A DNA stretch of 64,000 nt from Candidatus Doudnabacteria bacterium. GTDB lineage: Bacteria; Patescibacteriota; Dojkabacteria; J137; JAEUSD01. The notes below the pieces were generated by a model. It made no database searches and was not told where the DNA came from. It was given only the letters and a program-made list of their open reading frames with translations. The stretch covers positions 19,391 to 83,390 of the forward strand of contig JAEUSD010000001.1 of NCBI GenBank assembly GCA_016788825.1, written 5' to 3'. Of the stretch, positions 23,365 through 62,564 are shown in pieces (the first letter of the stretch is position 1; every line of letters starts with the position of its first letter). A program made the position numbers and the translations under genes.

Positions 23365-23474
23365 AACTGGCTATCAATAAAAAGGTCTTCTATTCCAAAC
23401 CAATTCTAAGCTCTGCCTGCCTGTTAGGAAAGGCATCGCTGTCAAAATATTATTATTTATCTTTGAAAGACCTT

Positions 23475-23562
23475 CGGAGAGGGGGAGATTCGAACTCCCG
23501 CTGGGTTTTACCCCACTAACTCGTTAGCAATGAGTCCCCTTGAGCCTCTTGGGTACCTCTCC
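23475..23562 (-). tRNA. tRNA-Ser (anticodon GCT), class II with long variable arm
   Basis: The reverse complement folds as GGAGAGG-TA-CCC..GGG-(ACTCA)TTGCTAA(CGAGT)-long variable arm-GGGAG TTCGAAT CTCCC-CCTCTCC-G. It closely parallels E. coli tRNA-Ser(GCU). Discriminator G. There is an A31-C39 mismatch in the anticodon stem. Confidence 0.85.
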
Positions 23563-23651
23563 AATAAAATTTCGCAAAATTTGTATTGCAATACATTGTT
23601 GGCGAAACGGACAAATTATAACATCAGTGCATAATTTAAGTCTCTCAAAAT

Positions 23652-24314
23652 ATGCATACAATCTTTATCCTTACTGACAATCTCCGTTTCGCCCTACAAC
23701 TGAGACGGGAACTGCAAAGGTTTAAATTATCACTTCACATACTGCTCGATCCCACCCGCTGTGACAAACCATTACAGAAGTCCCCCAAAGCTACGCTGGT
23801 TGTAAACATGGAAAAATCCTTCGCACATAGTCAAATTGTTTGCCGACAGCTGCACAAGAAATTTCCTTTGATGGCAAAAGCTATAGTTATGGGAAAGTAC
23901 AATAGTTTCCAATATATAGAATCGGGTAAATGCGGCGCTGATGAGTACTTCAGTTCAGATTTAGCCATTGAAGATGTCTGCAATCGATTGGTCAAACTAG
24001 CGTCACGGCCACCAGTTCGTCCTGAACGAGAGATAGTCCTGAGTGAATACACCATAAACACAGAAGGTGGGACTGTACATTACGCAGGGAAACCCTTGCA
24101 CTTGCGCCCCAGAGAATTTGAGATCCTGAAGTTACTGGCTGAAAACCATGGAAAAGTCGTATCTCGCGAGAAGATAGAGGCCAACCTCGAAGGCGGGCGG
24201 CGCACAAGTATTCACGCGCACATTTGCAATGTGCGCAAGAAATTAAGCAGCTGCGCCGCCCGCAACATTATTCAGACGATCCACGGCGTGGGGTACATGA
24301 TCCGAGTTGACTGA
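23652..24314 (+). CDS. OmpR/PhoB-type winged-helix transcriptional regulator with atypical (probably non-phosphorylatable) receiver domain
   Basis: 220 aa. The C-terminal trans_reg_C pattern is LRPREFEILKLLAENHGKVVSREKI...TIHGVGYMI. In the N-terminal receiver-like fold, the expected phospho-acceptor Asp position reads N (TLVVNMEK). Confidence 0.65.
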   Translation: MHTIFILTDNLRFALQLRRELQRFKLSLHILLDPTRCDKPLQKSPKATLVVNMEKSFAHSQIVCRQLHKKFPLMAKAIVMGKYNSFQYIESGKCGADEYFSSDLAIEDVCNRLVKLASRPPVRPEREIVLSEYTINTEGGTVHYAGKPLHLRPREFEILKLLAENHGKVVSREKIEANLEGGRRTSIHAHICNVRKKLSSCAARNIIQTIHGVGYMIRVD

Positions 24315-24335
24315 TGGAGCTCGCAAAGCTTCCGC

Positions 24336-25304
24336 TTGGCAAGATGCTATATAATGTCAGAAATGCCGACGCAAAGAACATCACTCGGAGACTTACTTCG
24401 CCGAGAACGCGAAAAACAACAACTAACGACAGCCCAAGTGGCGAAGAAAACTTTTATTCGAGCTGAAGCTATCGAAGCTCTGGAGGCTGGGAATTATGAG
24501 TTCTTTGGTTCACCAGTGTATGTAAACGGGATAATGAAGTCGTACGCTACGTTTCTGCGGGCGGATTTGGACAAAGTAGCTGCTCTGTACCGCAGAGATA
24601 CAGCCACAGCCAAAAAAGCAGCCATCCAAGAGACCAAATCTGCCCCCAAGACATTTATCCCAACTTCTTTCATCTACAGTCGCAAAGGACTCACTGCCAT
24701 TGGTCTGGGACTGCTGCTAGTTATTGGAGCAGCTTTCATACTCAACCAGGTTCAGGCACTACTTACCCCGCCTCAACTGACAATTACCGTGCCGCAAGAG
24801 CTCGCCGCAGACTACACGGGGGAACTTCTCATCTCCGGAAATAGCTTTCAGCTGAAGGGAAGAACATCCCCACGCACAGTTGTACGCTTTGGCGGTGAGG
24901 TGTTGGAAGTAGATTTGGACAATACATTTGCCACACCGGAGATACCGTTAGCCGGAGATGAATTCTTGGCAACGCTCACCGCCACAAACCAGCTGGGTCG
25001 TACCGCTACGATCAACTTGACTATCCGCAAAGCCGGCAGCAGTGTAATAAAAGTGGATAAACTCTCTGCACTTATCGAAGTCAGAGATGCCACCACGCAG
25101 GTGCTCATCCGAACAGATGGCAAGATCCAATTTGATGATAGATTGCTACCTTCGGAGGTGATCAGCGTGGAAGCGACCACTCGGATCCAGATCGAAACTG
25201 CGGATCCTCAGCGCCTGAGGATCCGCATAAATGGCACCGACTACACGACCTCTGCCCTTTCTACATCGTGGGAAATCGTGGAAGGGAGTGTGGTTCAAAA
25301 ATAG
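24336..25304 (+). CDS. rodZ: RodZ-like cytoskeleton/morphogenesis protein (HTH + TM + C-terminal domain)
   Basis: 322 aa. N-terminal XRE-type HTH (LGDLLRREREKQQLTTAQVAKKT...) is followed by the RodZ-typical GSPVYVNGIMKSYATFL segment, a single TM helix (AIGLGLLLVIGAAFIL) and an extracytoplasmic C-terminal domain. Confidence 0.6.
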   Translation: MARCYIMSEMPTQRTSLGDLLRREREKQQLTTAQVAKKTFIRAEAIEALEAGNYEFFGSPVYVNGIMKSYATFLRADLDKVAALYRRDTATAKKAAIQETKSAPKTFIPTSFIYSRKGLTAIGLGLLLVIGAAFILNQVQALLTPPQLTITVPQELAADYTGELLISGNSFQLKGRTSPRTVVRFGGEVLEVDLDNTFATPEIPLAGDEFLATLTATNQLGRTATINLTIRKAGSSVIKVDKLSALIEVRDATTQVLIRTDGKIQFDDRLLPSEVISVEATTRIQIETADPQRLRIRINGTDYTTSALSTSWEIVEGSVVQK

Positions 25305-25532
25305 CCAAATCTACATTCTTGGTAGATGACTTCTCTCTTTACATTTCCATTGACCACCTAGGTACCTACTGTTATGATCTTTATAACTTCCTGAACAGAA
25401 AGTTGGCTCGGAGTCCAGAAAATGTACGCGAACCTCAGATGAAAGAGCCATCTGGAAGTAAATACTCTGCTTGAGCCAAACCCGGGTTTGCATCAGAGTT
25501 TCCAAAAAACGAAACATGTCTAAAAGAGTCCC

Positions 25533-25553
25533 GCACAGCGGGAAACGAAGGTG
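25533..25553 (+). promoter_or_regulatory. T-box-like antiterminator core (GAAGGTGGCACCAC) in the serS leader
   Basis: Sequence AACGAAGGTGGCACCACTCTG contains GGUGGCACC. This matches the T-box consensus core GGGUGGNACC, with N=C complementary to the G73 discriminator of tRNA-Ser. It lies about 10 nt upstream of a strong terminator hairpin and about 100 nt upstream of the serS ATG. Confidence 0.35.
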
Positions 25554-25562
25554 GCACCACTC

Positions 25563-25627
25563 TGCCTAGCTTAGAGTCCTTGTGTATATTAAGTATAGTC
25601 GTACTTGGTATACATGAGGACTTTTTT
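25563..25627 (+). terminator. Rho-independent terminator/attenuator hairpin immediately upstream of serS
   Basis: A 14-bp stem AGTCCTTGTGTATA...TATACATGAGGACT (two G-U pairs) is followed by TTTTTTGTTTT. The serS start codon is only ~25 nt downstream. Confidence 0.6.
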
Positions 25628-25651
25628 GTTTTAATTATTACTTAAGAGATA

Positions 25652-26914
25652 ATGCTAAACCCCGAAATCATTCGTAAAAATCCTGACATGGTGCGCAAAA
25701 ACACAGCGGAACGTAATATGGACCCAGCCCTGGTCGATGCCTGGCTACAGAAAGATGCAGAGCGCAAAAAGACCCTGGCCGATGTTGAAGACTTGAATCG
25801 TAAGAAAAATGAGTTGGCAAACATGGGGAAACAGGGAGTGGATGTGGAGACGATTCGCGCACAAGGAAAAGAAGTGAAGGAGGCAAGTGTAAAGCTAGAA
25901 GAGAGCCTGAAAACTGTGGAGGAGGAATGGTTGACATTGATTAACCAGATTCCGAACTTGCATCTGCCTGATGTAAAGATTGGCAAAACTGATACCGAGA
26001 ATGAAGTGGCTCGTGAAGTTGGTGAAAAACCAAAATTTGATTTTGAACCAAAGGACCACTTCACTTTGGGAACTGAATTGGGACTTTTGGACTTTGAGTC
26101 TGGCGCGAAGGTTGCTGGCTCTCAATTCTATTTCCTCAAAGGTGATGCTGTACTTTTGGAGTTTGCACTGATTCAGTTTGGGCTGGAAATTTTGCAGAGC
26201 AAAGGTTTCCAACTAGTTTCAACTCCTGATCTAGCGAAATCTCGTTACTACCTCGGGACAGGCTACGCTCCACGTGGCGATGAGGCGCAGATATATGAGA
26301 TCGAAGGTGAGGACCTGGGCCTCATCGCCACGGCTGAGGTGACTATGGCTGGAATGCACGCTGACGAAGTTCTAAACCTTGAACAGTTGCCACTCAAGTA
26401 TGCAGCGATTTCACATTGTTTCCGTAAAGAAGCCGGTGCCTACGGGAAGTATTCAAAAGGTTTGTACCGTGTGCATCAGTTTACAAAGTTGGAAATGTTT
26501 GTGTACTGCGAACCTGGCCAGTCTGAAGCGATCCACCAAGAGCTTTTGGCTGTTGAAGAAGAGATCGCACAGCAGTTAGGCATCCCTTACCGAGTTTTGA
26601 ATATGTGCTCAGGCGACCTGGGAGCCAGCGCCGCAAAGAAATACGACTTGGAAGCTTGGCTCCCAGGTCGCAACGACTACGGCGAAATCACATCGACTTC
26701 AAACTGCACCGATTTCCAAGCTCGCAACCTAAATATCAAGTACCGCAATGAAGAGGGCAAGAATGATTTCGCCCACATGCTCAACGGTACTGCGATCGTA
26801 ATGTCTCGTTTCCCGATTGCTATCATGGAGAACTACCAGCAAGCCGACGGCACGATCAAAATCCCTGAAGTGCTACGTAAATACTTTGGGAATAGGGAAT
26901 TTATTGGGAAATAG
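25652..26914 (+). CDS. serS: seryl-tRNA synthetase
   Basis: 420 aa. N-terminal coiled-coil tRNA-binding arm. Class II motifs are present (motif 2 FRKEAGAYGKYSKGLYRVHQF, motif 3 region GTAIVMSRFPIAIMENY). Confidence 0.95.
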   Translation: MLNPEIIRKNPDMVRKNTAERNMDPALVDAWLQKDAERKKTLADVEDLNRKKNELANMGKQGVDVETIRAQGKEVKEASVKLEESLKTVEEEWLTLINQIPNLHLPDVKIGKTDTENEVAREVGEKPKFDFEPKDHFTLGTELGLLDFESGAKVAGSQFYFLKGDAVLLEFALIQFGLEILQSKGFQLVSTPDLAKSRYYLGTGYAPRGDEAQIYEIEGEDLGLIATAEVTMAGMHADEVLNLEQLPLKYAAISHCFRKEAGAYGKYSKGLYRVHQFTKLEMFVYCEPGQSEAIHQELLAVEEEIAQQLGIPYRVLNMCSGDLGASAAKKYDLEAWLPGRNDYGEITSTSNCTDFQARNLNIKYRNEEGKNDFAHMLNGTAIVMSRFPIAIMENYQQADGTIKIPEVLRKYFGNREFIGK

Positions 26915-27009
26915 GTTAGGCAAGTTTACAGCTGGTTATATCGGAGTTAAAATCCAGCGCAGGCGGAAGGATACAATTAGTCATACACTTTACGTCTTCA
27001 AACCTTAAT

Positions 27010-29676
27010 TTACTCCAGTATCATTCCCTTCACAATCCCTCCCCACTCTACAAGCGTGAACCCTATGCGTTCAGGAGCCTGATAATCGCTTCCCCATTGC
27101 ACCATATCTGGTAATGAGCTTACAGGAATTGGATTCAGCAAAACCCTAATTGCTGTTTCAGGTGTGGGTGAAACAGCTAACGGGATCACTTTATCGATAG
27201 ACTGGGCATCAAAGAATTGCATCACGTAGAAAGGCGCTTCTTCGAGTTGCGGCAACCAATACTGCATAAAATCTGCACTCTCTGTTGCATTTAACCCCAA
27301 CCGATTAAGAGTTTGTGTTAAGTAATTACTCATATCTTGTTTCGCAACGACTTGTTGTATCACAGGGCTGGTCGGTAATGGTGCGTTAGCCTCCCAGAAT
27401 AGGTATCTATGCTTTTTCTGAGTCATCAAGTCCATAAGAGTGCCATTTGGATTTGCCAAGACATTCCAAACACCACTGTACTTAGGCTCAACTCTTACAA
27501 TATCAAGGTCTCTAGGCAAACTAACACTAACTTCTGTAGGAGTTGTCGGATAAAGGTAGATCACAGGCTCCGCATAGCATGTTGGTGATACCATATCTTC
27601 TCGAAATACTGCACGCCAAATTCCTAATGTGTCTTTCCATAACAAGACTGGTTCATACTCTAAGTAAGTCTCATAATCAACCGCCGCAACTGATTTGGTC
27701 ACTATCTTTCTATTATCATAGAAAATCTTAAATAAAGGCCATGATTTGTCGGTCACTATATATATTTCATCCCCTTGGTCCGTTGTGGCAGCTAATTGAA
27801 CCCCAGATCCCAAATCCAATTCAGCCTGTTTAAGCTCTTCGGAAATATCTAGTAAAAGCTTACTGTTAGGTGTAACGGCGCCATTCAACCCCATTCCCTG
27901 TGTATTCAAAAAGTTACACCCAATAGGATCTCCTATGTATTGAATGGTATTGGTATTGAAGAGTTGATAGCCAGCATCTGCAACATCTGGAAAATCTTCT
28001 AACACCTTTGAAGCAGTCCAAACAAGGTCCCTTGATGTGTAGGAATAATAAGCCTCTTTTGCCGTATCTTCATAGTAAACGAATGGCTGATTGAAACCAG
28101 ATTTTCCTAATTCACTTCTAAGTCCTGCGACAGTTCTAATTGAAACCTTTGAATCAACAGCATCCACCACCGAAAGTTTTGAACTTTTAGGATCTCGGTT
28201 TGAATAAAACTGAGATCCTGACCCTAAAGTATCTAGCAAGTACAATTCAGCCAAAGATTCACTTGTAAATAATTCTCTTCCTACCGTGCTGTTTACAATA
28301 AGCTCTTTCCCCTTATAGTCAATTTCTCGGTTATTAATTGAATCAACGATATCCAGATCCAAAGCGGCATCAAAAGTAATTCCAACTTCGGGCATTGATT
28401 TAACCTCACTAATAAAGCTATCTGGAGCTGTATAAGACAATATCCGAGGTTCCTGTCGTAGAATGTTCACGTTATCGTAATCCCTACCCAAAACATACTT
28501 GTTATCTCCTAGATCAATAAACAGTGTTGCAAAAGTAACCCCTAGCTTAATATCGGCCTCAGTTGGAAGACCTTTCACAACATCACCATAGGGCATTTCG
28601 CTACTTAAGGCTAAATAGACATTTTTACCAGGATATATAGTCTTCATTTGACCTACAAGATAGTATTTTGTCGTAGCGGCAAAAGACTTAGTGTATATCT
28701 GATAATCAGGTTTCGTGACTCCGTTAACAGTAATATAACAATCCTGACCTGTTTTACAGTACTCCATCTGGAAAGGGAAGTATTGGTCTATCAAGGTCAT
28801 CAACGTAGGGCCAACCTCTTCTTTGATATCTAAATACCATATGGCTTGATCTGTTTCTATGACGCGGGTTTCGGGCGTAGTAGTTGTACTCTCTGTTGAC
28901 GAGCTTTGTTCCGGAATAATTTCGGTAGAAGTCCCCGTTTTCCCATAGGTCAAGAAGAATAAGATTAAACCTATAACCACGACTGGCAGAGCCAAAAGTG
29001 AAACCTTCGCACCTACCGGAAGAGCCTTAAACTTTGTCGTCATTTTTTGCCACATATTAGTTTGAGGTTGAAAATTAATACTCTGTTGCACCGAACTTAC
29101 TAATGTCGAAGAAGGCACAAACTCTGGTGCGGATACAATTTCAGGAATTGCCAAAAGCAGGAGCGGAATCGTAAGAACACGCATCTTCATTTGTTTCTTG
29201 GCCATCTGTTCAAGTCCACGGTAGTATTTTGCTTTTACGGTGCTTTCGGTGGTTTCCAAAAGCTCAGCAATCTCCGTAAATTTCATATCTTCCCAAATCT
29301 TGAGGATAATGATTTCTTTGGTGACTTCATCCAACTTATTCAGTTCGGACTTCACCTGCTCGAGTAGAGCACCGTCAATTACAGCATTTTCAACAGGAGG
29401 AAAGTCGGAAACAGTCTGTTCTTCATCTTCAAGCGGTTCAATCTGGGGTTTATTACGGAATTTTTTATAAATTAGGTTTCTGGCGGCACCAATTAGCCAT
29501 GCGTGTGGGTTATCAACTTTAGAATAATTTTGCACGAGACTTAAGAAAACTTCGCTGACAATATCTTCAGCATCGGCCTTATTTCCCAACTTGGAAAATG
29601 AGTAGCGGTAGACGTTTGGCAAATATTCTTCGTAAACTTTTGGTATTTGTGAGTGTTGCATACCTAGTAGTACCAT
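27010..29676 (-). CDS. ECF-type sigma-70 factor fused through a TM helix to a ~650-aa extracytoplasmic domain
   Basis: 888 aa. N-terminal sigma region 2 (VYRYSFSKLGNKADAEDIVSEVFLSLV) and region 4 HTH (EIIILKIWEDMKFTEIAELLETTESTVKAKYYRGL). Then a hydrophobic TM segment (RVLTIPLLLLAIPEIV) and a long non-cytoplasmic domain with no recognisable fold. Confidence 0.75.
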   Translation of the reverse strand: MVLLGMQHSQIPKVYEEYLPNVYRYSFSKLGNKADAEDIVSEVFLSLVQNYSKVDNPHAWLIGAARNLIYKKFRNKPQIEPLEDEEQTVSDFPPVENAVIDGALLEQVKSELNKLDEVTKEIIILKIWEDMKFTEIAELLETTESTVKAKYYRGLEQMAKKQMKMRVLTIPLLLLAIPEIVSAPEFVPSSTLVSSVQQSINFQPQTNMWQKMTTKFKALPVGAKVSLLALPVVVIGLILFFLTYGKTGTSTEIIPEQSSSTESTTTTPETRVIETDQAIWYLDIKEEVGPTLMTLIDQYFPFQMEYCKTGQDCYITVNGVTKPDYQIYTKSFAATTKYYLVGQMKTIYPGKNVYLALSSEMPYGDVVKGLPTEADIKLGVTFATLFIDLGDNKYVLGRDYDNVNILRQEPRILSYTAPDSFISEVKSMPEVGITFDAALDLDIVDSINNREIDYKGKELIVNSTVGRELFTSESLAELYLLDTLGSGSQFYSNRDPKSSKLSVVDAVDSKVSIRTVAGLRSELGKSGFNQPFVYYEDTAKEAYYSYTSRDLVWTASKVLEDFPDVADAGYQLFNTNTIQYIGDPIGCNFLNTQGMGLNGAVTPNSKLLLDISEELKQAELDLGSGVQLAATTDQGDEIYIVTDKSWPLFKIFYDNRKIVTKSVAAVDYETYLEYEPVLLWKDTLGIWRAVFREDMVSPTCYAEPVIYLYPTTPTEVSVSLPRDLDIVRVEPKYSGVWNVLANPNGTLMDLMTQKKHRYLFWEANAPLPTSPVIQQVVAKQDMSNYLTQTLNRLGLNATESADFMQYWLPQLEEAPFYVMQFFDAQSIDKVIPLAVSPTPETAIRVLLNPIPVSSLPDMVQWGSDYQAPERIGFTLVEWGGIVKGMILE

Positions 29677-62216: not shown

Positions 62217-62400
62217 GTAGTATTAATACATTTTTCATTCTATATTTAATAATTTCTAAGTAATTGATTTCCACATAAATCACTTCTTTTAATAGATTCA
62301 AAGTTGTTGCTACTGAACTTGTGTGCAGAAATAATATTAGCTTTGTTTCTATTAAACAGTTTTTTAAAAATCATGTTTTATACATAATATTAGATTAATA

Positions 62401-62485
62401 CGGAGAGGACAGGATTCGAACCTGCGATCCCTTGCGGAACACCCGTTTTCGAGACGGGCCCTTTCAACCACTCAGGCACCTCTCC
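62401..62485 (-). tRNA. tRNA-Ser (anticodon CGA), class II
   Basis: The reverse complement folds as GGAGAGG TG CCTGAGTGGTTGAAAGGG C CCGTC TCGAAAA? The anticodon stem-loop is CCCGT CTCGAAA ACGGG with anticodon CGA. Long variable arm, T-arm AGGTTCGAATCCT, discriminator G. Confidence 0.85.
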
Positions 62486-62564
62486 GTAGTCGATTATATC
62501 AATAAGTTCGTGAAACGCGCAGAAGTCTTGTTTAAAGTATATACATAGATATATACTAGGTTCT

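Follow-up and report, generated by a model that had tools for sequence, protein, structure and literature searches.

How is seryl-tRNA synthetase (SerRS) production controlled in a candidate-phyla (CPR) bacterium, and why should a strong intrinsic terminator stand directly in front of the gene that encodes this enzyme? The question is raised by a 64,000-nucleotide (nt) stretch of Candidatus Doudnabacteria DNA (contig JAEUSD010000001.1, positions 19,391 to 83,390; hereafter the window), in which the serS ATG (25652) is separated from the end of a rodZ-like open reading frame (ORF; end at 25304) by an untranslated gap of 347 nt (25305-25651). A preliminary description of this DNA, which gave the extent of the gap exactly, had suggested a T-box-type attenuator, possibly a divergent one, whose UGGC would pair with the G73-CCA end of tRNA-Ser. 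Based on a comparison with the serS leaders of related genomes we propose, with a probability that we put at roughly 80%, that the serS leader is a T-box-type transcription attenuator that senses uncharged tRNA-Ser and whose tRNA-recognition half is divergent.

An antiterminator/terminator switch in eleven serS leaders

The serS loci of relatives were gathered via protein look-ups, and labels such as L001 denote these loci. The window SerRS is 100% identical to an NCBI "serine--tRNA ligase" protein labelled Candidatus Doudnabacteria; Candidatus Dojkabacteria is among the relatives with 61-81% identity, two genome matches at 63-64% identity are labelled Candidatus Saccharibacteria, and all of them are CPR bacteria. 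Comparison of related leaders, a step that the preliminary description had recommended, revealed the same arrangement in ten further serS leaders, the SerRS proteins of which are 63-81% identical to that of the window. The resulting set of eleven comprises eight leaders of full length (the window, L161, L162, L163, L164, L251, L001 and L248) and three that are cut on their 5' side by a contig end (L168, L171 and L002).

The 3' half of the gap carries GGUGGCACC at 25550-25558 as part of a T-box core, GAAGGTGGCACCAC, at 25547-25560, which had been recognized previously but placed at 25536-25549. Similarly, the hairpin followed by TTTTTTGTTTT is indeed present, with the hairpin at 25573-25624 and the U-run at 25622-25632 instead of at 25563-25627; its stem has 24 base pairs (bp), G-U pairs included, and not 14, the U-run ends 19 nt and not about 25 nt before the serS ATG, and the core and the hairpin are 12 nt apart where ten had been given, the earlier coordinates being about 10-14 nt too low. 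The terminator hairpin is the top terminator-like site in 24000-27500 and dominates the predicted fold of the gap (-94.2 kcal/mol overall, z = -3.4). Its 5' arm starts with 9 nt (25573-25581) that are at the same time the 3' strands of the two antiterminator helices, A2 and A1 (Table 1).

Across the eleven leaders GGUGGCACC and the CC(U/C)U strand are essentially invariant and the terminator stems vary in sequence. The 7-nt bulge UGGCACC is identical in 11/11 leaders, with C as the N of UGGN in every one. In the antiterminator alignment of these leaders 96.6% of the cells pair and five of the eight pairs show double, that is compensatory, changes; the covariation score was reached by none of 500 shuffles, and sliding the partner strand by one to three columns reduced pairing to 22-60%. 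The changes extend into the terminator: in L163 and L168, A2 reads GUCU/AGAC and the terminator 3' strand is altered to GGUCUGC (GCAGACC/GGUCUGC), and in L164, A1 reads GGG/CCC and the terminator CCCUAGG.../...CCUAGGG. This three-way covariation between the 5' strand of A2 or A1, the shared strand and the 3' strand of the terminator is as an antiterminator/terminator switch predicts. The two alternatives are mutually exclusive, and folding them, which had also been suggested, gave predicted energies of -30 to -37 kcal/mol for the terminator and about -5 (-4.7) kcal/mol for the antiterminator. A weak antiterminator facing a strong terminator is the profile expected of a fold that needs a ligand to win.

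The fourth base of the bulge, C, is complementary to the discriminator G of both tRNA-Ser genes in the window. Both genes have the 3' end ...CCUCUCC-G, and the discriminator G claimed for them in the preliminary description was borne out in the standard U8 register, relative to which the ARAGORN boundaries of both genes are off by 1 nt. In light of these features we posit the following mechanism. The serS leader would be transcribed from a dedicated promoter as an RNA of 265 nt with two mutually exclusive folds. By default, the terminator hairpin and its U-run would stop RNA polymerase 19 nt before the serS ATG. When uncharged tRNA-Ser is bound, its free G73-C-C-A end is predicted to pair with UGGC (25552-25555) in the antiterminator bulge, and the antiterminator so stabilized would take the first 9 nt of the terminator 5' arm, resulting in read-through into serS, such that undercharged tRNA-Ser would lead to more SerRS. 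The tRNA itself would probably be captured by pairing between its anticodon and a UCC codon in the leader and by stacking of its elbow on a platform in the first hairpin, these two recognition modules apparently being joined by a linker of 4-6 nt plus a hairpin and not by a continuous helix.

The distance from the U-run to the serS AUG is 18-56 nt in most of the relatives in which it was measured, 83 nt in L168 and 144 nt in L171. The L168 spacer (L168:200-285) contains an extra GC-rich hairpin, GCACCUCCCC...GGGGAGGUGC; the L171 spacer lies at L171:140-285.

Table 1. Predicted features of the serS leader and associated genes in the window
Feature	Position	Strand	Details
Predicted leader promoter	25350..25378	+	-35 TTGACC 25350-25355; 17-nt spacer; extended -10 TGTTATGAT 25370-25378 (-10 proper 25373-25378)
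Hairpin 1 (P1)	25387..25458	+	P1a CUUCC 25387-91 / GGAAG 25454-58; P1b UGGCUC 25404-09 / GAGCCA 25445-50
T-loop pentamers in hairpin 1	25397-25401; 25440-25444	+	AGAAA (5' bulge); UGAAA (loop end)
Distal-loop insertion of hairpin 1, 28 nt	25410..25437	+	GUACGCGAACC 25424-25434 (11 nt); CCA 25415-25417
Hairpin 2 (P2)	25464..25499	+	ACUCUG 25464-69 / CAGAGU 25494-99; inner hairpin GCC-AAAC-CCGG-GUUU-GC 25475-25491
Candidate specifier, unpaired	25501..25504	+	Ser codon UCC 25501-25503 and purine A25504; 2 nt after the CAGAG 3' strand of hairpin 2
A-rich linker and stem III	25505..25547	+	Conserved UAAAAGAG 25521-25528; CCCGC 25530-34 / GCGGG 25538-42; AAACGA into the T-box
T-box sequence and antiterminator	25548..25581	+	A1 AAGG 25548-51 / CCUU 25578-81; 7-nt bulge UGGCACC 25552-58; A2 ACUCU 25559-63 / AGAGU 25573-77
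Intrinsic terminator	25573..25632	+	24-bp hairpin (including G-U) 25573-25596 / 25601-25624, loop AGUC; U-run UUUUUUGUUUU 25622-25632
serS, seryl-tRNA synthetase (regulated gene)	25652..26914	+	420 aa; Pfam PF02403 and PF00587
tRNA-Ser(GCU) gene	23474..23563	-	Discriminator G, CCA not encoded; effector family, not the predicted UCC-reading isoacceptor
tRNA-Ser(CGA) gene	62400..62486	-	Discriminator G, CCA not encoded

A conserved promoter upstream of the leader

We then considered whether the hairpin belongs to serS or to the gene upstream. The predicted promoter of the leader matches the consensus at 10 of 12 positions in the window, with the TG of an extended -10 element, and the pattern TTGAC[CT], a 17-18 nt spacer and TGnTATnAT recurs at the equivalent position in all eight full-length leaders. 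The promoter ends 6-9 nt before the first hairpin in these leaders (8 nt in the window), except in L001, where the distance is 19 nt, and transcription is predicted to start at about 25383-25386, 1-4 nt before hairpin 1. The terminator sits between this promoter and serS in each of the eight. The upstream gene, in contrast, varies: it is an HTH_25/rodZ-like gene in the window, L161, L162 and L251, AhpC in L163 and GPI in L248. As judged from these neighborhoods, the leader element travels with serS and not with the upstream gene.

These observations bear on the reading, named as a rival in the preliminary description, that the hairpin is a plain intrinsic terminator of the rodZ-like gene and that serS has a separate promoter downstream of it. 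The hairpin and its U-run do resemble an ordinary strong terminator, and they lie downstream of a gene on the same strand. Nevertheless, we consider this reading extremely improbable. Only 19 nt are left between the U-run and the ATG, and no promoter-like site was found there; the element stays with serS despite different upstream genes or, in L164, precedes an ahpC-serS operon; a plain terminator would have no use for an invariant UGGCACC bulge or for an antiterminator that covaries; and a separate small hairpin already adjoins the rodZ-like stop codon. Because a dedicated promoter is conserved upstream of the element in all eight full-length leaders, the hairpin is best understood as an attenuator of serS and not as the terminator of the upstream gene, and the earlier view of it as an attenuator holds on the strength of this promoter together with the overlap of antiterminator and terminator. 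What the comparison of leaders shows is the promoter, the two alternative folds with their compensatory changes, the invariant bulge and the discriminator match; a T-box-type attenuator with UGGC facing G73-CCA, possibly divergent, is supported by this comparative evidence, namely the promoter, A1, bulge and A2 with compensatory changes, and the obligatory overlap with the terminator.

The small hairpin just mentioned (AUCUAC-N7-GUAGAU, 25309-25327) is AU-rich and is followed by a U-rich stretch. It directly follows the rodZ-like stop codon, upstream of the promoter of the leader, and may serve the rodZ-like gene as a weak terminator. In L164 (380-1201) the leader is complete: its promoter is followed by hairpin 1 (425-499), UCC-A, the T-box core (612-621) and a terminator reaching to about 680. 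It precedes a gene of the AhpC/Redoxin family (710-1195), and serS follows 5 nt further on, such that the T-box seems to control this peroxiredoxin-like gene jointly with serS. The AhpC homologue of L163 (253-723) is instead upstream of the leader. A tRNA-Ser(GCU) gene lies upstream of serS both in the window, at 1.8 kb, and in the distant relative L001 (L001:1184-1274, minus strand), at 1.4 kb; this linkage may be conserved between the two.

The 5' hairpin as a putative elbow platform

The leader RNA is predicted to open, within a few nucleotides, with hairpin 1, which has a 5' bulge of about 12 nt and a loop of 35 nt. Given a plain MAFFT alignment, RNAalifold recovered its upper helix, P1b. 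The hairpin was also captured in a covariance model (R1), which scores 72.9 bits on the window and 63-81 bits on the eight copies, including that of L164, which was not used in training; nothing else in about 890 kb of serS loci scores above 14 bits. In hairpin 1 as a whole 87.5% of the cells pair and 9 of 11 pairs show double changes, values reached by none of 500 shuffles, the counts having been made on the model alignment, which is biased towards the structure fitted. The insertion in its distal loop contains the 11-nt motif GUACGCGAACC, invariant in 8/8 full-length leaders, and a conserved CCA; no covarying partner for GUACGCGAACC was found in the leader alignment.

The elbow platform of T-box stem I is formed by two T-loop pentamers, whose consensus is AGAGA for one and UGxRA for the other (PMC7583486). 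All eight copies of hairpin 1 have AGAAA, AGAGA or AGGAA in the bulge directly 5' of P1b, and UGAAA, UGAGA, UGCAA or UGUGA at the end of the loop directly before the P1b 3' strand. Canonical Chloroflexi serS leaders show the corresponding order UUCAGAGAGU-CGCC-GGUGAGUGCGA-GGCG, and L001 shows UCAGAGAGU-GAUUC...UGUGA-GAAUC. Based on these pentamers and their positions we infer that hairpin 1 represents the distal end of stem I, where the elbow platform lies, and that its apical loop has been enlarged by an insertion of 28 nt.

Two otherwise canonical Chloroflexi serS T-boxes, L123 (1168-1240) and L127 (1183-1259), carry insertions of 30-35 nt at the equivalent point of the distal loop, but keep the full canonical stem I. 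The L123 insertion contains GGUACGCGAAG, which we compared with GUACGCGAACC of the CPR leaders (alignment z = 2.3 against shuffles); the similarity is weak, and a shared origin of the L123 and CPR insertions is no more than possible.

Several other pairings were considered for this region. The preliminary description had proposed CCAGA...TCTGG, placed at 25406-25445, as part of stem I; both strands are present and complementary, at 25415-25419 and 25451-25455, but the helices conserved across clades are CUUCC/GGAAG and UGGCUC/GAGCCA. CCAGA/UCUGG is rejected as a stem I helix, since its conservation is partial, L001 and L248 do not have it, and it conflicts with P1a. Within the nearest clade the complementarity takes the forms CCAG/CUGG (L161, L251), UCCA/UGGA (L162) and CCAAA/UUUGG (L164, with one compensatory change); such a pairing would be pseudoknotted with P1b, and two of the G residues that it needs are also claimed by P1a. 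It may represent an alternative or clade-specific tertiary pairing. A base helix UUGGCUC/GAGCCAA (3' strand at 25473-79) was likewise rejected, its 3' partner not being conserved whereas GAGCCA at 25445-50 is. Finally, CGAACC matches the tRNA T-loop GGUUCG over 6 nt for the CGA isoacceptor and over 5 nt for GCU, which is within chance expectation, and a CGAACC-tRNA T-loop pairing is speculation.

A candidate specifier outside stem I

Hairpin 2 is the RNAalifold consensus in the closest clade, where it leaves UU-UCC-A free, and it shows a G-C to A-U compensation in L163. Other helices occupy the equivalent position elsewhere: ACCGA-CGCG-UCGGU in L001 and CAGUU...AACUG in L248 and L002. Eight leaders from three clades (the window, L161, L162, L163, L164, L001, L248 and L002) share the order of a helix, 2 nt, UCC and A, and each of the eight has a single UCCA between hairpin 1 and the core. 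A purine after the specifier codon is the rule in T-boxes. UCC is the commonest of the Ser specifiers in TBDB, with 65% of them (PMC7778990). In light of this positional conservation we think that UCC-A is, on balance, probably the specifier read by the anticodon; it would then make tRNA-Ser(GGA) the effector.

The preliminary description had asked whether a Ser specifier lies in an internal loop of stem I. A canonical specifier loop was not found in the leader, and the AGU in GGAAGUAAAU (25456-25458) is not conserved, being AGA in L161-L163, which disqualifies it. UCU or UCA in ACUCUG was set aside as part of the paired, covarying 5' strand of hairpin 2, and where hairpin 1 has Ser codons, in its 5' bulge or its apical loop, none keeps its position across the leaders. 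Two leaders depart from the pattern. L168 (45-60) has AGCGCA where its sister L163 has UUUCCA, and L251 (975-1055) has no UCC and no clear stem III, with 80 nt between hairpin 1 and the core where the remaining full-length leaders have 91-159 nt. Nearby, L168 and L251 both carry AGC plus a purine, and they are either decaying copies or cases of a switch to an AGC specifier.

The apex of hairpin 2 (25477-25490 in the window and its equivalents) reads as a perfect palindrome in each of the clades: CAAACCCGGGUUUG in the window, L161, L162 and L164, ACCGACGCGUCGGU in L001, CCUAGG in L163 and L168, CAGCUG and GCUCGAGC in L248, and CCCGGG in L251. The tetraloops at the apex (CCGG, CGCG and CUAG) are self-complementary. 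Loop-loop dimerization and a DNA-level site are ideas that this palindrome suggests. Furthermore, GCGAACC is complementary to GGUUUGC, the 3' strand of the inner hairpin of P2, over 5-9 bp in all clades; because the motif is invariant, covariation is impossible for such a pseudoknot, whereas the local hairpin does covary.

The divergence of this recognition half invites a different reading of the leader, namely that it is an attenuator switched not by tRNA but by a protein, a small molecule or a leader peptide, and that the T-box-like core is convergent or co-opted. In its favor, the recognition half matches no T-box model and has no canonical specifier loop, and the invariant 11-nt motif GUACGCGAACC could be a protein or ligand site. 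We nonetheless regard control by something other than tRNA as quite unlikely, given that UGGCACC is invariant in all eleven leaders and identical to the bulge of canonical serS T-boxes, with a variable position that fits the tRNA-Ser discriminator; that AGARA and UGxRA stand at their canonical positions and the Ser codon with its purine is conserved in three clades; and that neither a match to an Rfam riboswitch family nor a conserved leader ORF was found, the ORFs of the gap not being conserved in the alignment.

Evidence that weighs against a T-box

A sensor of uncharged tRNA-Ser remains our preferred explanation of the serS leader, and a series of results counts against it. First, the standard models do not recognize the window sequence. 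Rfam 15 at gathering score returned only two tRNAs from the window, and the search for RF00230 that the preliminary description had advised gave no T-box in 25250-25720 even at E<=10. Among the relatives four gave weak RF00230 matches (L248 28.2, L164 26.3, L162 24.8 and L002 23.9 bits; none in the others), all confined to the 3' half of the leader, the best of which, 28 bits, compares with a gathering score of 93, and with 104 bits for a Lactobacillus serS leader, 105 for a metagenomic one and 81-92 for Chloroflexi/Veillonellaceae serS leaders used as positive controls. The L248 alignment (model positions about 149-219) covers stem III and the T-box sequence only and skips the stem I positions. 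In addition, a covariance model of 29 canonical distal stem I segments (R2) gives hairpin 1 at most 4.5 bits with filters off, although it does find Chloroflexi L123 and L127, with insertions at the equivalent place, at 30-31 bits; the platform assignment accordingly rests on the two pentamers and their positions.

Second, much of the canonical stem I is missing. The leader has neither an AGUA/GAA S-turn nor a specifier internal loop, and no tandem G-A motif flanks P1a, such that there is no K-turn; the latter is not decisive, as about 29% of known T-boxes also lack a K-turn (PMC11404447). The 35 nt upstream of hairpin 1 and the 35 nt downstream of UCCA are no more complementary than shuffles (z -0.7 to +1.3), which indicates that no proximal stem I can form wherever transcription really starts; on these grounds a proximal stem I hidden in transcripts that start further upstream was rejected. 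Third, the leader transcription start is a sequence prediction, no tRNA-Ser(GGA) gene is present in the window, UCC-A is absent in L168 and L251, and the independent compensatory events are few, most of them coming from L163 with L168, L164, L001 and L248, in a set of eleven sequences from few clades.

Against this stand the hallmarks of the decoding domain, all of which are present: a UGGN antiterminator, a discriminator match, an overlapping and stabler terminator and an aminoacyl-tRNA synthetase gene downstream. The features of class II T-boxes are not: the platform pentamers are there, stem II and the IIA/B pseudoknot are absent from the leader, and the output is a helix followed by a U-run, 18-144 nt from the AUG in relatives. 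The preliminary description had held that the lack of both an Infernal match and a conserved stem I with specifier loop would speak against a T-box; taken literally this is what the leader shows, but in view of the covariation and the weak matches in relatives we judge that standard to be too strict.

Patchy distribution of the leader

The leader is absent from the examined DNA of the close relatives L165, L166/L167, L169 and L173, whose SerRS proteins are 69-71% identical to that of the window. In L166/L167 and L173, serS begins about 10 nt after the preceding gene, and in L165 and L169 the gaps before serS are AT-rich and have no T-box core. Nor was such a leader found in the serS loci examined from other CPR lineages. 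Beyond the eight copies of hairpin 1 described above, the R1 model detected none among 172 serS loci and none in the rest of the window, scanning of metagenomes with the SerRS protein found no relative above 55% identity, and a scan of viral contigs for AATGTACGCGAACC gave 74 chance matches, none with a T-box core. As far as this patchy distribution tells, the leader has been gained or lost repeatedly in the lineage of the window.

Losses of this kind are also what might be expected if the leader were a decaying T-box relic, the truncated stem I of which no longer binds tRNA and leaves the hairpin as a constitutive, leaky attenuator. To the lost copies in close relatives are added the absence of the proximal stem I, the lack of UCC-A in L168 and L251, and the lack of a clear stem III in the latter. 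Yet purifying selection acts strongly on the 5' as well as the 3' domain in leaders whose SerRS proteins are 63-81% identical, as seen in the invariant 11-nt and 9-nt blocks and in the compensatory changes, which affect both hairpins 1 and 2, A1, A2 and the terminator; a relic would not retain the T-loop pentamers, the bulge and the codon; and a constitutive terminator of -30 kcal/mol before an essential single-copy gene would be costly. We therefore hold decay to be unlikely, and favor a leader that still responds to tRNA-Ser.

Comparison with known T-box classes

In its target and its decoding half the CPR leader closely resembles canonical class I T-boxes (RF00230), as represented by the serS leaders of Lactobacillus (L073), Veillonellaceae (L067) and Anaerolineae/Chloroflexi (L036, L038). 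It shares with them the aminoacyl-tRNA synthetase target, an A1 of 4-5 bp, the 7-nt UGGNACC bulge with N = C, A2, and a terminator overlapping the antiterminator 3' strands, as well as an AAAGNG-type purine block before stem III, AGAGA-type and UGxRA pentamers flanking the distal helix, and UCC plus A. In contrast to their long stem I, the CPR leader starts at the helix just below the AG bulge and has none of the K-turn, the AGUA/GAA S-turn, the specifier internal loop and the lower helices. Its distal loop has 35 nt with the invariant GUACGCGAACC, as against 11 nt in canonical serS T-boxes, its candidate specifier lies 2 nt after a separate hairpin, and RF00230 gives it 0-28 bits as against 81-105 bits for the canonical leaders. 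In function, then, the predicted arrangement is that of a textbook serS T-box; in structure it departs from the Rfam model and from a specifier loop placed in a long stem I.

Other classes offer partial parallels. The glyQS T-boxes of Bacillus and Geobacillus, which are minimal transcriptional T-boxes, are likewise without stem II and the IIA/B pseudoknot and have a single-stranded linker to stem III and the antiterminator, but retain a complete stem I with the specifier loop inside, which the CPR leader does not. The class II translational T-boxes of Actinobacteria with an "ultrashort" stem I, such as that of Mycobacterium tuberculosis ileS, are also truncated and poorly handled by RF00230 (PMC7583486, PMC7778990), and their existence indicates that the family tolerates large changes in stem I. 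They have, however, kept the specifier loop, lost the platform, use stem II and sequester the ribosome-binding site, whereas the CPR leader has the opposite truncation and a terminator as output (PMC7583486). As for the insertion in hairpin 1, T-box insertions are known "in every domain" (PMC7583486), and stem Sa of staphylococcal glyS is likewise a lineage-specific insertion, but in the antiterminator domain (PMC9177973).

In light of these comparisons we tentatively raise the possibility, which we rate below that of a T-box mechanism as such and of the UCC specifier, that the CPR leaders form a distinct and previously unrecognized structural class of T-box with a "split" stem I, so far confined to one CPR lineage (labelled Doudnabacteria, Dojkabacteria or Saccharibacteria). 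Such a class would have its platform on a 5'-terminal hairpin, an insertion with GUACGCGAACC that may contact a class II tRNA-Ser feature (the long variable arm or the T-loop region), its codon outside stem I, and no K-turn, S-turn or ruler helix. The phyla in which T-boxes are known are Firmicutes, Actinobacteria, Chloroflexi, Deinococcus-Thermus and a few Proteobacteria (PMC2494555), and our combined full-text literature search found no paper mentioning T-boxes with CPR, Patescibacteria or Saccharibacteria. TBDB was built from RF00230 and one class II model (PMC7778990), and for that reason the CPR leader would not be in it.

Implications

Regulation in the reduced genomes of CPR bacteria is poorly known. 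As the RF00230 route misses the CPR leader, T-box surveys are probably blind to it, and perhaps to other divergent classes as well. Transcriptional T-boxes are thought to require a long stem I that spans, like a ruler, the distance from the tRNA anticodon to the tRNA elbow (PMC7583486). If the reading proposed here is true, the serS leader would be a functional T-box that has the platform but no proximal stem I, and would make its elbow and anticodon contacts via separately tethered modules, which would widen the known design space of RNA-RNA recognition.

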